From UHGV virus genome UHGV-0198106: a DNA stretch of 64,000 nucleotides; one strand, 5' to 3'. Of the stretch, positions 27,894 through 49,153 are shown piece after piece; position 1 is the stretch's first letter, and every line of letters starts with the position of its first letter. Below the pieces are notes generated by a model. It did no database searches, was not told where the DNA came from, and was given only the letters and a program-made list of their open reading frames with translations. The position numbers were made by a program, and so were the translations under genes. The stretch comes from a virus.

Positions 27894-27949
27894 TTAGAAC
27901 TCCTTAATATATCAGTGTACACTAAGGAGTATACATTATAAGTTACTAT

Positions 27950-40312: not shown

Positions 40313-42343
40313 TTAACCTCTATTCAATGAACATTTAGGAGAATTACAATAAACTTGATTCATAGAACCAAGCGTACAACTTTCAGCATCGCGCCACGGA
40401 ATCTGCTTAAAACACTCTGAGCAGTATCCGAGGGTTGACCACATGGCTTTGGTGAAGTCAGTGCTTCGATTTCCGTCGAAGCTGACAACAGTTTTGCGGA
40501 GAGCTGTTCGTGATTCAGGAAACACACCTGCTTTCTCAGCAGGTTCCTCCTTTTTTGGCTTAGTCGAGATTGCAAAAATACTGTTGCCACGTTTCTCAAC
40601 ATAAGCATCAACAACATCTTCCAGAGTGATACCTGTTTGTTTCGCTGAGGAGGGTAATACGGTCATACGACCAATCATTTCCTCAGTTACACGTACAGCA
40701 ATTTCAGGACGACGGGTGTTTGTTGTATCTGTTGCTTTAATCCAGACATAACCATCTTTGATCGTAGCATTAGACACTTTCTTCTTTACTTCTACAGCAC
40801 AGTCTTTACAGATATCTTCACCACGGAGGCGGCTAAGTTCTTCATCGAACTCATTCTCTGTTTTAACCTCACCACAGATTTCACAAACACCGATAGGAGT
40901 CTCCTCCTCTTCTTCCTCTTTAGGTTTAGTCAACCTTTCCAGACACTCGGGATGCCAGTAGCACTGATATGCGAAGACTGCTTTAGGTGCATCCTTCCAA
41001 TCAATGTGCTTGTCACAACCACCACAATCACCATGAGAGTGTGCTTCCCAGAATTTACGAGTGATAGTAACGCCATTCTTGTTGACGAAACTATCATTCA
41101 TGTCAAAAGGGATATCATCATCGAAGTCAGCAGTAGTTGACTCAGGCTCCTTTTTCTCCAGAGATGGGTCAACAAAACGACCTGCTGTGATTACTAAACG
41201 AACCATAGCATCGACTTCGGAGATGCAGGATACTGTCCCACGGTAAACAATTTTAGGGTCTTTCAGGGCATCCTGATAAGCCTTAATGTCTACGTTATGA
41301 ACATCACCTTCAATGTACTCTTGAGATTTCTCATCGTAGATATAACCAATCATCTTACCACGAGAAGGAACAGCACCAGCAGTTGCATAGGGAACAAATT
41401 CATGTGGTGTGATTTCCACAGTCATGTCGCGGCGAATATCAATGTTTCGATCGCTTGCGATTTTGTTTTGACTTACCACTGCGTTTCTTCGACGAACGTC
41501 TGCCGCTGTCACTCCCGGCTTCGTGTCGTAAGGATTGCTTGTACTGCTTTTTGAGGAGCTTTGATAATTGCTTTGGCTGTAGTTGTTCGAGTAGTAACTG
41601 GCCCAACGATTGACTACCGTAAAAACCGGAAGCTCATGGGCGACCTCTTCAACCAGAGTCATGCTGTTGTTTGACATATCAAAGATATATTCTGTACCAA
41701 CTTTACATTCAAAGTGCTCATCAATTCGGTTTTTGTGAGACTTAGAACGCTTCAGAATCCACATCAGCATATCTTCTTCAGAAGCACCAAACCAATCTCT
41801 ATTACAACGTGCGAGATGGAAAGGACGCTCTTCGTTACGAATAATATGAAGACGGTTATCAGAAGCATCATGCCAGATTAAGGTGAAAGCACCATCCAGC
41901 TTTTGAATAGTCTCTGCTGCACCAATAGTGTTAATAGAGTAGCAGATGTTCTCACTGTCTACCTCGAAGTTTTTACTGTCAGGTAACAGATCTTGGTCCA
42001 TCAAGGTTCCGTTATGAACCAGAGTGATGTTACCGTGTTGGAAAGGATGGGCGTTCTTGGCGTTAACTGCACCTTTCGTTGCATGACGACTGTGACCAAC
42101 AATCCATGAAGGTGCTACAGTATAAGATGTTTCACCAGTGGTGTGCTTCTTATACTCATCTTGTAGGATGAATGCGAAAGAGGGAAGAGCTTCCTTATAA
42201 GTGAAGACTTCCTTAGTACTTTTACGCTGACCAAAGATACCAGAGGAATGTTGTCCTCGGAATACCCCAGCATAAAAGAGTTGGTTGAATACGTCTAAAT
42301 CGGTGCTTGACAGATTACCGCCAGCTAATACGATGCCGCAAAT
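40313..42343 (-). CDS. class-II (Ntn) glutamine amidotransferase domain protein with Cys-rich C-terminal region
   Basis: GATase motifs CGIVLAGG, GHSRHATKG, NAHPF, HNGTL are encoded upstream of the first ATG/TTG (track start 42004); frame is open to a TAG at 42347-42349; only start placing Cys at position 2 is ATT 42341-42343, 8 nt after AGGTGGA. Confidence 0.6.
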   Translation of the reverse strand: MCGIVLAGGNLSSTDLDVFNQLFYAGVFRGQHSSGIFGQRKSTKEVFTYKEALPSFAFILQDEYKKHTTGETSYTVAPSWIVGHSRHATKGAVNAKNAHPFQHGNITLVHNGTLMDQDLLPDSKNFEVDSENICYSINTIGAAETIQKLDGAFTLIWHDASDNRLHIIRNEERPFHLARCNRDWFGASEEDMLMWILKRSKSHKNRIDEHFECKVGTEYIFDMSNNSMTLVEEVAHELPVFTVVNRWASYYSNNYSQSNYQSSSKSSTSNPYDTKPGVTAADVRRRNAVVSQNKIASDRNIDIRRDMTVEITPHEFVPYATAGAVPSRGKMIGYIYDEKSQEYIEGDVHNVDIKAYQDALKDPKIVYRGTVSCISEVDAMVRLVITAGRFVDPSLEKKEPESTTADFDDDIPFDMNDSFVNKNGVTITRKFWEAHSHGDCGGCDKHIDWKDAPKAVFAYQCYWHPECLERLTKPKEEEEEETPIGVCEICGEVKTENEFDEELSRLRGEDICKDCAVEVKKKVSNATIKDGYVWIKATDTTNTRRPEIAVRVTEEMIGRMTVLPSSAKQTGITLEDVVDAYVEKRGNSIFAISTKPKKEEPAEKAGVFPESRTALRKTVVSFDGNRSTDFTKAMWSTLGYCSECFKQIPWRDAESCTLGSMNQVYCNSPKCSLNRG

Positions 42344-42422
42344 TTTCTAATCCACCTGAAGGGTAAACCCTTTCATCTAATTAACCTTTAAATTGTGCCC
42401 CTTTATCAGAGGCACCCATTGA

Positions 42423-43526
42423 TTACAGCGCTTGCTCTAACTGATACTCCAGATGATCTGGAATGTACCCTGTGATATTATTATCAATATGGCCTGACTC
42501 ACGAAGTAAGTCAAAGATCTCACGGATACATTGCTCTGGTGCAGATCGTACAGTAGATAGATCTGTTGTATTAAGCATGACCAAAATCTCTTGGTACAAG
42601 TTGTTAGCATTCCCTCGGACATATCCAAGGTATCCATAGAAGTCTGAGATAAGACGTAAGTCAACAAGAACTTCTCCACTTGGGTTGGTTCGACGTAAAC
42701 GAATACGACCAGACTGCTCTACTTCATGAGAACGGCAGTACAAAACATCACGGGCCATACAATACCCTGAATGCAAATCCAATTCATCCAGACTGTAATC
42801 TAGTGGAAGATAAGGAAGCATTGGGGCAAATCGTACAGTATTTAAATGCTCGATAAACTGATCATTGCTCATCTCTGCGTTATCTAAAGCCAGCTTCTTC
42901 AACATTAAGAAGCGGTTAACCAGATTGAGAAGTTGACCACGTTTCCACTTAGGCTCACTGATACGGAACTCGATCGAACCATATTGGGCAAGTGGCAGAA
43001 GGTTCAGAGATGTATATTTATCCCATGAACGAACCAGACGGTTGAAGAACTCTTCATCGTCGTAGTTAAATGCGTCAGAGGCATTCATTACCTGTGCTTG
43101 TACCACTGCGAAAGCAGGGCAGAAGTTGCTACGGTAACGATGGTAGCCTGAACACTTGAACAACATCTTTTCATAGAAGGTCCAAGCTAGAATGGTCTTC
43201 TTGAGGATATTACTATCAGCATCCCTCATATCCATATGAACGTGAGTAGAGCAACGCCAAGTCCCCTCGGCGTGCGATTCAGCTACTGCTTCACTCAGGT
43301 TGTTGATAGCGTCTAACAACTCCTGTCCGTTGTAAGGTCGTGAACATACCATTTCACAACCGTTACGCAGGGAACCATCCTCTGTGCAATCCCACATATC
43401 TGCTTCGATATGTTCAGAACCTTCGAGTTCAAGTTCAATACCGACACCGCACTGAAGTGCAATTGAACTATGCGCCTCAGTTAAACGACCTTCTCGATAT
43501 CCAAAAGTTTGCGCTACAGTTGTCAT
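42423..43526 (-). CDS. glutamine-synthetase-fold carboxylate-amine ligase-like protein (amidoligase candidate)
   Basis: N-terminal GVGIELELEG resembling the G-I-E-x-E motif of GCS2/YbdK-type ligases. Confidence 0.45.
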   Translation of the reverse strand: MTTVAQTFGYREGRLTEAHSSIALQCGVGIELELEGSEHIEADMWDCTEDGSLRNGCEMVCSRPYNGQELLDAINNLSEAVAESHAEGTWRCSTHVHMDMRDADSNILKKTILAWTFYEKMLFKCSGYHRYRSNFCPAFAVVQAQVMNASDAFNYDDEEFFNRLVRSWDKYTSLNLLPLAQYGSIEFRISEPKWKRGQLLNLVNRFLMLKKLALDNAEMSNDQFIEHLNTVRFAPMLPYLPLDYSLDELDLHSGYCMARDVLYCRSHEVEQSGRIRLRRTNPSGEVLVDLRLISDFYGYLGYVRGNANNLYQEILVMLNTTDLSTVRSAPEQCIREIFDLLRESGHIDNNITGYIPDHLEYQLEQAL

Positions 43527-48886: not shown

Positions 48887-49153
48887 TAAAATAGGGGGAG
48901 GGGACGAATCCTCCCATATCCTATTAATTAAGTTTGCATGTAAGATCTAACAATCGGTTGCCTTTGTAGGAATAAGCGTTATGCTAATCCAGCACTAAAC
49001 TCCCGCCCCCCTTAGTGGGCTGGGTTATTAAAGGGTAACGCCCCTTATGGGCTAGTTACGTGAATGTTAGTTTGATAGGAGATCTGAAGTCCTATCTCAA
49101 AGGACTCTCGTAAGAATCCTTCACGATAGTCACGATTTGATCATGGTAACTCT

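Follow-up and report, generated by a model that had tools for sequence, protein, structure and literature searches.

In the Ntn amidotransferases GlmS, PurF and AsnB, the initiator methionine is removed and the N-terminal cysteine is exposed as the catalytic nucleophile; propeptide-type Ntn amidotransferases also exist. Among phages, translational operators such as the T4 gene 43/regA targets and that of the MS2 replicase control initiation by means of a conserved hairpin at the Shine-Dalgarno (SD) sequence or the start codon. With regard to rare start codons, the confirmed AUU starts of Escherichia coli are those of infC and pcnB, and near-cognate starts initiate in E. coli reporters at about 1-2% of the level of AUG (bioRxiv 10.1101/063800). 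In infC and pcnB, discrimination by initiation factor IF3 makes translation from AUU low or regulated (bioRxiv 10.1101/063800, PMC5499595), and mRNAs with this start are affected by temperature, nutrients and ppGpp (PMC5499595). An ATT start was also predicted in silico for ebpA of Enterococcus faecalis and shown to lower expression (PMC4447247).

In the present study, we analysed the start of a class-II glutamine amidotransferase (GATase) gene in a stretch of 64,000 nucleotides of viral DNA (the window), which belongs to a phiEco32-like Kuravirus. The ATT start discussed below is already known, the phiEco32 reference record having carried it from 2008 on, and it is of a known kind, that is, AUU initiation as in infC and pcnB. 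The same ATT opens the annotated CDS in the phiEco32 records EU330206 and NC_010324 (phi32_83) and in SU10, LAMP and Bas91.

The amidotransferase frame and its start codon

The features of the gene, all on the minus strand, are as follows.

40313-42343, minus: CDS of the glutamine amidotransferase with ATT taken as its first codon; 676 aa when the initiator Met is counted, 76.2 kDa
42341-42343, minus: putative initiation codon ATT, the CDS start in the phiEco32, Bas91, SU10 and LAMP annotations
42338-42340, minus: TGC, the predicted nucleophile Cys1 after Met removal; C1-G2-I3-V4 is invariant in the alignment
42347-42349, minus: in-frame TAG, also the stop of a mini-ORF, closing the frame two codons 5' of ATT
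42351-42357, minus: SD sequence AGGTGGA, with a 7-nt spacer to ATT
42002-42004, minus: TTG at codon 113, the first canonical in-frame start in the ORF listing, giving a product of 563 aa that lacks the catalytic Cys
42315-42341, minus: out-of-frame ORF TTG CGG CAT CGT ATT AGC TGG CGG TAA, from reading the sequence
42423-43526, minus: upstream gene of 367 aa, an amidoligase by annotation in relatives

Direct reading of the minus strand around the start gives CTTCAGGTGGATTAGAAAATTTGCGGCATCGTATTAGCTGG, which bears out the order of TAG, AAA (42346-42344), ATT and Cys given in the preliminary description, together with its count of 114 open codons between the TAG and the TTG at 42004 (AAA, ATT and 112 codons from the Cys). 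The SD that it named is also present, at 7 nt from the ATT and not at the 8 nt it gave; other ATT lineages carry AGGAGGA or AGGCGGA at this position. Counted from the Cys, the frame runs for 675 codons to a TAA at 40315-40313, the CDS having the 2031 nt of phi32_83 of phiEco32, and its layout consists of an N-terminal class-II (Ntn) domain and, after it, a long C-terminal part in which several CxxC pairs occur. With a stop in the same frame two codons before the ATT, a longer product is ruled out. In another frame, a canonical TTG (42341-42339), 9 nt from the SD, overlaps the ATT and begins an ORF of 8 codons; this out-of-frame UUG should compete for initiation.

Evidence that the segment preceding the first canonical start codes for protein comes from comparison with phage EP335, in which codons 1-112 have accumulated 58.5 synonymous and 34.5 non-synonymous differences (pS 0.74, dN/dS 0.04), as expected under strong purifying selection with saturated synonymous sites. 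The Ntn motifs C1-G-I-V, R28-G29-x-H-S-x-G and H109-N-G all lie within this segment, of which CGIVLAGGNLSSTDLDVFNQLFYAGVFR is an example peptide; C1, G2, I3, V4, R28, G29, H31, S32, G34, H109, N110 and G111 are invariant among the aligned homologues, and the R28-G34 and H109-G111 motifs align to those of PurF and GlmS. Pfam GATase_6 is matched at 54.1 bits (cutoff 27; 2.2e-14) and GATase_7 at 25.3 (cutoff 25), GATase_4 being matched as well, and a profile search of the PDB returned GlmS, PurF and AsnB. A profile score above threshold, a Cys placed first after the start and both glutamine-binding/oxyanion motifs are what characterises a class-II GATase. In all of the homologues read (50 or more), the Cys codon comes immediately after the start, which is mostly ATG and otherwise ATT, ATC, TTG or GTG. 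Beyond residue 192 of 675, the Pfam search detected no SIS or other domain, and the record name 'L-glutamine-D-fructose-6-phosphate aminotransferase' (GlmS) is, on the predicted protein, unsupported beyond the GATase domain. By these sequence comparisons, the gene is an intact GATase gene of a phiEco32-like coliphage.

The leader and ATT are shared with 99 phage records recovered by sequence search, and inspection of the individual bases shows the ATT in phiEco32, Bas91, EP335, ECBP2, BUCT695 and in IMG/VR and metagenomic copies. A sequencing error is thereby excluded, and a pseudogene was likewise rejected given the recurrence of the leader in these records and the dN/dS of 0.04. Within genome contigs, a scan for the SD-ATT module (AGGAGGATTAGAAA-ATT) found one phiEco32-like contig binned into a MAG and one chance match. 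Annotation reaches the ATT in only about 10 of the 60 leader-bearing relatives listed (99 found), while the remaining listed ones have annotated starts at varying positions downstream; those of Aeromonas phage BUCT695 and Pseudomonas phage O4 also fall downstream of the Cys codon. The practical point at this locus is therefore one of annotation: because gene callers ignore ATT, the annotated protein of most relatives lacks its catalytic cysteine.

No canonical start intervenes between the stop and the Cys, the SD stands at functional spacing and the AUU is conserved. As the preliminary description had proposed, translation almost certainly starts at the ATT (42343-42341), a reading backed by selection, the motifs, the placement of the Cys, the upstream stop, the SD and the curated records. 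Initiator fMet-tRNA would be placed at this AUU by the AGGUGGA 7 nt upstream, and deformylase and methionine aminopeptidase would then strip the Met so that Cys1 can act as catalytic nucleophile. Where the 30S subunit lands would be fixed by the strong, optimally spaced SD together with a hairpin abutting it. As AUU is a weak codon that IF3 discriminates against and that is sensitive to the state of the cell, its most likely role would be to keep GATase synthesis low and to make it depend on the host's translational state. It is very probable, in our judgement, that this explanation holds as a whole, namely an intact class-II GATase, started at AUU via AGGUGGA and relieved of its Met, with the AUU holding synthesis low or host-dependent. 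Its use of AUU, expression level, IF3 dependence and hairpin function are what we infer from the nucleotide record.

The leader and competing accounts of the start

Upstream of the ATT, the leader contains the following elements.

42359-42372, minus: predicted hairpin AAGGG-TTTA-CCCTT, separated from the SD by 1 nt
42339-42393, minus: 55-nt block ATTTAAAGGTTAATTAGATGAAAGGGTTTACCCTTCAGGTGGATTAGAAAATTTG, identical to phage ECBP2, with saturated synonymous sites in its flanks
42347-42376, minus: mini-ORF ATG AAA GGG TTT ACC CTT CAG GTG GAT TAG (MKGFTLQVD*), 9 codons in the GATase frame
42395-42415, minus: predicted hairpin GTGCCTCT-GATAA-AGGGGCAC, just 3' of the amidoligase stop codon

The 55-nt block is the eighth longest exact match to ECBP2 genome-wide, and the codons adjoining it have a pS of 0.74 between the window and EP335. 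The hairpin at 42395-42415 shows compensatory changes in relatives (GCGCTCT...AGGGCGC in ECBP2) and accounts for most of the folding z of -3.1 obtained for the 106-nt region; the leader folded alone is predicted to be no more stable than shuffled sequence (z -0.5 to -0.75). A known riboswitch or RNA family was rejected, as Rfam 15 gave for 42200-42500 only two sub-threshold chance matches (16.7 and 14.2 bits against gathering values of 44 and 70). A motif scan of the leader detected no convincing sigma-70 promoter. In the phiEco32 group, TTTAAAGGTTAAT is a degenerate version of an AATGTA motif that BUCT695, A24, 7-11 and Privateer have ahead of the GATase gene; the promoter motif has been given as tAATGTATAtA (PMC4281155), and the window-wide scan for the gp36-type motif returned no enrichment. 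A programmed frameshift from an upstream frame was rejected too, each of the three frames having stops within the 80-nt intergenic region, and the AAAAUUU sequence offers no classical X XXY YYZ heptamer feeding the GATase frame.

The mini-ORF gives rise to the thought, a variant of the main explanation, that the AUU is reached mainly by termination-reinitiation, with ribosomes ending the mini-ORF (ATG at 42376 to TAG at 42347) 3 nt before the AUU, helped by the SD embedded in it, so that GATase synthesis would be coupled to a leader peptide. The geometry is suitable, in that the mini-ORF shares the GATase frame and has its own AAGGT 7 nt before its ATG; EP335, ECBP2 and BUCT695 have it too, and in other ATT lineages the same TAG ends 4-codon ORFs (L070, L053, L087) or full-length upstream genes (L064, L071, L079, L091). 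A short intercistronic distance combined with an SD is known to favour reinitiation (PMC2268962). The mini-ORF is, however, not universal among ATT lineages: an in-frame upstream ORF is absent in seven of them (L066, L072, L073, L074, L095, L096, L101) and is not implied for ATT lineages with other spacers. Moreover, its ATG sits in a predicted extended stem, and the two substitutions in BUCT695 are both non-synonymous while the copies in E. coli phages display no synonymous drift, which argues that the constraint is on nucleotides and not on the peptide. We consider this route unlikely as the main one.

It is more doubtful still that the AGGAGGATTAGAAA-ATT module, identical before highly divergent GATases, owes its distribution to horizontal spread with free-standing homing endonuclease genes instead of to selection on translation. 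Such genes do end exactly at the module TAG, namely an HNH_3 endonuclease (3e-13) in L071 and L079 and an Endonuclease VII gene (1e-25) in L091; in L070, a variant of L079, the endonuclease gene is missing except for 55 nt of its 3' end, and short remnants ending in QED*, KED* or QVD* are found in L069, L070, L053, L087 and phiEco32. As the endonucleases belong to different families, they more likely read into a pre-existing module up to its first in-frame stop, and spread by homing would need flanking homology, which GATases 22-42% identical cannot supply. Most module-bearing loci, furthermore, have no endonuclease, and ATT lineages with other spacers share the same architecture.

We find it highly improbable that the gene yields nothing but a truncated 563-aa protein, translated from the TTG at 42004 and starting at Met113 (MMDQDLL...), with the N-terminal GATase part left as an untranslated relic. 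This TTG is the first canonical start and most listed relatives are annotated downstream of the ATT, a fact explained by the gene callers, which do not consider ATT. SU10 gp85 was detected during infection with 9 peptides and is listed in the proteomics table at 63.8 kDa (PMC4281155), a mass that matches the 563-aa product (63.9 kDa computed) and not 76.2 kDa; the table probably reflects the database entry used, though the listed mass does not speak for the long form. A relic is hard to reconcile with a dN/dS of 0.04, saturated synonymous sites and intact catalytic motifs over codons 1-112, and the shorter product would be without Cys1 and would have lost half of the Ntn fold. A second, internal product may nevertheless accompany the long form.

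UAG is not efficiently suppressed in ordinary E. coli hosts. A start at the mini-ORF ATG with readthrough of the TAG, yielding a 12-residue propeptide removed autocatalytically in the style of Bacillus subtilis PurF, has the shared frame of the mini-ORF in its favour and is scarcely credible: the TAG interrupts any in-frame extension of the propeptide type, L037 has a TAA directly before its ATT, other ATT lineages have no upstream start whatsoever, and the tRNA search found no tRNA gene within the 64-kb window (the related ECBP2 record has only tRNA-Arg), on which ground suppressor tRNAs and stop-codon recoding were rejected.

Recurrence of ATT and ATC starts among phage amidotransferases

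Direct initiation at the AUU, the preferred reading, gains a wider setting from the homologues. ATT or ATC starts occur in 4 of the 24 start-blind GATase clusters, in about 12 further IMG/VR lineages and in at least 8 metagenomic lineages whose GATases are 22-42% identical to one another, amounting to at least 20 divergent phage lineages overall. Nearly always, these starts are preceded by a perfect SD, AGGAGGA, with a spacer of exactly 7 nt, the 7-nt spacing as such being common to all of the ATT/ATC lineages. A hairpin of 5-7 bp abuts the SD in 15 of the 24 AUU/AUC lineages, as compared with 1 of the 27 canonical-start GATase homologues (p 7e-6) and 3 of 68 generic strong-SD ATG genes (p 1e-7), both p-values being optimistic in that the lineages compared are phylogenetically related. 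The hairpins of the other AUU/AUC lineages are equivalent in position and differ in stem sequence; in some lineages the cassette is conserved at the nucleotide level (AGGAGGAUUAGAAA-AUU) despite diverged proteins.

The SD module is not a special element by itself, a possibility that was rejected, as AGGAGGATTAGAAA followed by ATG is a generic ribosome-binding site preceding many unrelated genes (at least 120 matches). Joined to ATT-TGYGG, the same module is GATase-specific, accounting for 16 of 17 metagenome matches, and a search for AGGAGGATTAGAAA with ATG before TGYGG returned 0 matches.

The preliminary description had also raised the idea that the ATT may regulate the level of expression. 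This is reasonable as a reading of the sequence, and it is strengthened by the fact that ATT/ATC starts in the family come with a perfect, fixed-spacing SD and an abutting hairpin. Taken across divergent phage GATases, the hairpin-SD-AUU arrangement suggests deliberate translation control, and as a family-wide cassette it appears to be unreported; its function, we infer, is low translation gated by IF3. More tentatively, and with the odds in our view somewhat against it, the whole series of hairpin, perfect SD, 7-nt spacer, AUU/AUC and Cys1 might represent an ancient, selected translational control device which ties the synthesis of phage Ntn amidotransferases to IF3 activity or the physiological state of the host and would thus be more than a weak start.

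Comparison with known systems

The closest described gene is the ortholog phiEco32 gp83 (phi32_83; ABY52884.1 / YP_001671828.1), with about 96% nucleotide identity, the same 2031-nt CDS and an identical leader and ATT; the window differs by its Cys1 codon (TGC, against TGT in phiEco32) and by scattered substitutions. As for the cellular enzymes, GlmS, PurF and AsnB share with the phage GATase the N-terminal Cys, the R-G-x-x-S-x-G and H-N-G motifs and comparable spacing, whereas in the phage protein neither a synthase nor an acceptor domain is recognisable, and its partners are an amidoligase and an ATP-grasp enzyme, both encoded nearby. In contrast to the T4 and MS2 operators, the GATase leader has no known or predicted binding protein, and its stem and loop sequences change from one lineage to another, which speaks against a single sequence-specific binder.

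Similarly to the phage gene, ebpA has an ATT upstream of an annotated, downstream canonical start (PMC4447247). It differs in being a bacterial pilus gene, for which neither family-wide recurrence nor a hairpin-SD cassette is reported. E. coli infC, which encodes IF3, and pcnB resemble the phage GATase in having an SD before the AUU and in conserving the rare codon. Since infC thus encodes the very factor that discriminates against its start codon, its AUU completes a loop of autoregulation, and no such loop is evident for the phage gene. To our knowledge, the combination of a perfect AGGAGGA at exactly 7 nt with an SD-abutting hairpin is not known from infC or pcnB. Set against the two confirmed AUU starts in E. 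coli, AUU/AUC starts are found in about one-sixth of phage GATase lineages; if the device proposed above is real, this would be the first known enzyme family having a non-canonical start codon as a family trait and not as a single-gene curiosity, and would offer a natural comparative system for learning why weak starts are selected and how IF3 discrimination serves infection.

Sequence of the proposed start site and the N-terminal domain

The minus strand of the window reads TTAGATGAAAGGGTTTACCCTTCAGGTGGATTAGAAAATTTGCGGCATCGTATTAGCTGG at the start of the glutamine amidotransferase (GATase) gene, with the following elements identified by direct reading:

42357-42351, minus strand: AGGTGGA, Shine-Dalgarno (SD)-like sequence
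42349-42347, minus strand: in-frame TAG
42346-42344, minus strand: AAA
42343-42341, minus strand: ATT
42340-42338, minus strand: TGC (Cys)

The frame stays open until TAA at 40315-40313 (minus strand), and a mechanical ORF list begins it only at TTG 42004-42002 (563 aa), so that the 112 codons from Cys to TTG hold no canonical start. The preliminary description had reported this absence, with TAG, AAA and ATT preceding Cys, and both the sequence and the ORF list confirmed it; the SD-like AGGTGGA is likewise present, but lies 7 nt from the ATT rather than the 8 nt given there. No frame runs stop-free across the 80-nt gap 3' of the upstream amidoligase gene's stop codon, stops occurring in all three. 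Overlapping the ATT out of frame is also a canonical TTG (A-TTG-C), which lies 9 nt from the SD and begins an ORF of 8 codons closed by TAA (42341-42315, minus strand); since every ATT-TGY start necessarily includes such a TTG, it could vie with AUU for initiating ribosomes.

Over codons 1-112, the window and phage EP335 show 58.5 synonymous and 34.5 non-synonymous differences (pS 0.74, saturated; pN 0.13; dN/dS 0.04). An alignment of seven sequences is invariant at C1 G2 I3 V4, R28 G29 x H31 S32 x G34, N96-F100, H109 N110 G111 and D128 S129 E130, the protein matches the Pfam families GATase_6, GATase_7 and GATase_4, and a PDB profile search returned GlmS, PurF and AsnB with the R-G-x-x-S-x-G and H-N-G motifs aligned. 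The N-terminal region is an intact Ntn amidotransferase domain, of a family in which the nucleophile must be residue 1 once Met is removed. Pfam recognises nothing past residue 192 and no synthase domain was found, so the 'GlmS' names in records are unsupported. The C-terminal two thirds (40316-41590, minus strand; about 480 residues without a Pfam match) carry an acidic KPKEEEEEE linker and several CxxC...CxxC pairs (e.g., HGDCGGCDKH...CYWHPEC, GVCEICGE...CKDC and GYCSECFKQ...CNSPKC), which look like zinc-ribbon-like modules.

Annotation and start codons among relatives

Across the GATase region, identity to phiEco32-like coliphages (Kuravirus, Gordonclarkvirinae) is about 96%, with 98 matching records, 69 of them spanning most of the query. 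In phiEco32 the 'glutamine amidotransferase' phi32_83 is a 2031-nt CDS opening at the same ATT (GenBank EU330206, RefSeq NC_010324), as do the annotated CDSs of Bas91, SU10 and LAMP; for the type phage, records thus already carry the ATT start, though its propagation is inconsistent. The annotated start lies 3' of the Cys codon by 171 nt in EP335, 27 nt in ECBP2, 30 nt in Aeromonas phage BUCT695 (NC_070977.1) and 108 nt in Pseudomonas phage O4 (KU535860.1), and of the 99 records found to bear the leader, 60 were listed, with a gene annotated over the leader in only about 10 of these 60. The sequence indicates ATT-TGT as the real start in BUCT695 and ATC-TGT in O4, where hairpin AACCTC-GTT-GAGGTT, GGAGGA and 7 nt precede the ATC. 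The SU10 amidotransferase was detected by mass spectrometry (9 peptides) and tabulated at 63.8 kDa (PMC4281155), the size of a TTG-start product (computed, 63.9 kDa) and not of the 76.2-kDa ATT product, whereas the deposited record KM044272.1 annotates the 2031-nt ATT-start CDS (76.2 kDa). Among the publications examined, none discusses the ATT start of this gene.

In every homologue read, the Cys codon immediately follows the start codon. ATG is the commonest start (e.g., Privateer, A24, 7-11, LUZ24, LAh_9), while ATT is used by the entire phiEco32, EP335 and ECBP2 group, by BUCT695, whose protein is nearer the ATG-type A24 and 7-11, and by two unrelated IMG/VR lineages (L037 and L048/L049); ATC occurs in O4, GTG in APT65, and TTG in CVT22 and L035. 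Because the census sequences were gathered by protein similarity alone (clustered at 60% identity), the sample is blind to start codon, and it gave ATT in 3/24 clusters and ATC in 1/24. Annotated bacterial starts are ATG (81.8%), GTG (13.8%) and TTG (4.35%), with ATT/ATC far below 1% (bioRxiv 10.1101/063800). The ATT lineages are scattered over a neighbour-joining tree.

Several non-GATase phage ORFs from IMG/VR (L087/L098, L095, L096, L101, L091) also appear to be ATT-started after AGGAGGATTAGAAA, among them one with a tail-fibre-like N-terminus (PRDASGNYQLPPQNPVAAG...) and another, of 274 codons, with its first canonical in-frame start only at codon 84. Phage annotations in general may be missing ATT starts that follow a strong SD.

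Conserved leader and the hairpin-SD-N7-AUU pattern

The 55-nt block 42393-42339 is identical between the window and ECBP2 despite saturation of the synonymous sites next to it. Ranked by length, it is eighth among exact matches to ECBP2 across the 64 kb, and no other long one falls in this part of the genome. The block includes:

Within 42393-42339, minus strand: in-frame mini-ORF MKGFTLQVD*
Within 42393-42339, minus strand: hairpin AAGGG-TTTA-CCCTT, 1 nt from the SD
Within 42393-42339, minus strand: SD and ATT

Synonymous differences set in at codons 1-2, so the conserved block stops at the start codon. BUCT695, with a protein 53% identical, retains ATTAGATGAAAGGGTTaACCCTTCAGGcGGATTAGAAAATT except at two positions, one of them in the hairpin loop and the other being the SD's central base. 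The mini-ORF shows zero synonymous drift and both BUCT695 changes are non-synonymous, which points to constraint at the nucleotide level, not to a conserved peptide. The leader had no Rfam match.

A metagenome scan for GGNGGATTAGAAAATTTGYGG found 17 loci, 16 of them directly 5' of a Cys-Gly GATase ORF and representing at least 8 lineages, 22-42% identical mutually and to phiEco32. As a control, this SD-spacer pair with ATG after it proved a common generic ribosome-binding site before many unrelated genes (at least 120 matches), and the 14-mer by itself is thus unremarkable; followed by ATG and TGYGG, it gave 0 matches in IMG/VR versus 6 for the ATT version. With the spacer left free (AGGAGGA-N7-ATT-TGYGG), 19 of 76 matches were bona fide GATases with varied spacers, from about 12 further lineages, and 50 were noise without an ORF. 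Scans and controls together show that ATT before Cys1, with a perfect SD spaced exactly 7 nt away, recurs as a trait of phage Ntn GATases. A perfect stem of at least 5 bp ending 14-17 nt 5' of the start codon, i.e., abutting the SD, occurs in 15/24 AUU/AUC lineages versus 1/27 canonical-start GATases (Fisher p 7e-6) and 3/68 generic strong-SD ATG genes (p 1e-7), p-values that are optimistic because the lineages are related. Stem sequences vary by lineage (AAGGG/CCCTT, GCATGT/ACATGC, CCTGA/TCAGG, GACGT/ACGTC, AAAGC/GCTTT, AACCTC/GAGGTT and others), as would be expected if it is the structure that is conserved. Both this family-wide cassette and the nucleotide-perfect leader conservation appear to be unreported, and their function is putative.

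In L053, a metagenomic phage bearing the module, the gene preceding the ATT-start GATase (266-886) is a Peptidase C26/class-I GATase-like gamma-glutamyl hydrolase (8.6e-24), so gene neighbourhood varies among lineages. In the window, a second hairpin (42395-42415, minus strand) immediately 3' of the amidoligase stop codon shows compensatory substitutions (phiEco32-type GTGCCTCT/AGGGGCAC versus ECBP2 GCGCTCT/AGGGCGC), and A24, 7-11 and Privateer have GC-rich hairpins at the equivalent position; it is probably a terminator or a processing/stability element between the two genes. Just 5' of the GATase SD, relatives L006-L009, L020, L022 and L023-L025 carry TTTAAATGTAA-like sequences resembling tAATGTATAtA, given in PMC4281155 as the motif of gp36-dependent middle/late promoters; in the phiEco32 group the sequence is degenerate (TTTAAAGGTTAAT), consistent with the gene's early-class assignment there. 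Other long exact matches to the divergent ECBP2 (27898-27939, 48889-48931, 49072-49128 and a dense cluster at 53.0-55.8 kb) seem to mark strongly conserved non-coding or regulatory segments, and 27898-27939 (minus strand) contains TAATGTATAC, matching the phage-sigma promoter motif.

Probable initiation at AUU and comparison with known systems

Translation from the ATT, the main interpretation of the preliminary description, is upheld by purifying selection, the intact Ntn motifs, the homologue starts and the phiEco32 annotation. The best-supported mechanism, which we consider highly probable, is that fMet-tRNA initiates de novo at AUU and that Met is then removed, which would expose Cys1. In this phage, the AUU could possibly be reached by termination-reinitiation from the mini-ORF, but many lineages have no upstream ORF stopping at the TAG. 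Spread of the module together with homing endonuclease genes could be suggested by free-standing genes of this kind directly 5' of ATT-start genes, whose own stop codon is the very TAG within the SD-spacer module (...QED*/KED*) in L071 and L079 (HNH_3, 3e-13) and L091 (Endonuclease VII, 1e-25); however, the families differ and most loci have none, and more probably these genes read into a module that already existed. The ORF stopping at this TAG in L064 has no Pfam match; endonuclease-gene remnants occur in L069, L070, L053 and L087, L070 being an endonuclease-less variant of L079 that retains 55 nt of the gene's 3' end. Read-through of the TAG, yielding a propeptide, is opposed by the failure to find a suppressor tRNA in the window and by an arrangement that is not general across lineages. 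A truncated protein from the TTG is contradicted by purifying selection upstream of it.

For de novo initiation, AUU yields about 1-2% of AUG in E. coli reporters (bioRxiv 10.1101/063800) and is notably sensitive to IF3, low temperature, nutrient limitation and ppGpp (PMC5499595). ATG-type homologues mostly have short SDs (AAGGA, GAGG, AAAGG) and ATT types AGGAGGA or AGGTGGA; GATase expression may thus be subject to stabilising selection that can be satisfied in two ways, by pairing AUG with a weak SD or by pairing AUU with a perfect one, and the second way would also make it depend on the initiation-fidelity machinery. For the hairpin, possible roles are insulating the SD, presenting it, or stabilising a processed 5' end. 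The cassette and the leader conservation raise the locus above a routine annotation note, while the ATT feature at these coordinates, annotated in the reference phage already, is of a known kind, the same AUU initiation as in infC and pcnB.
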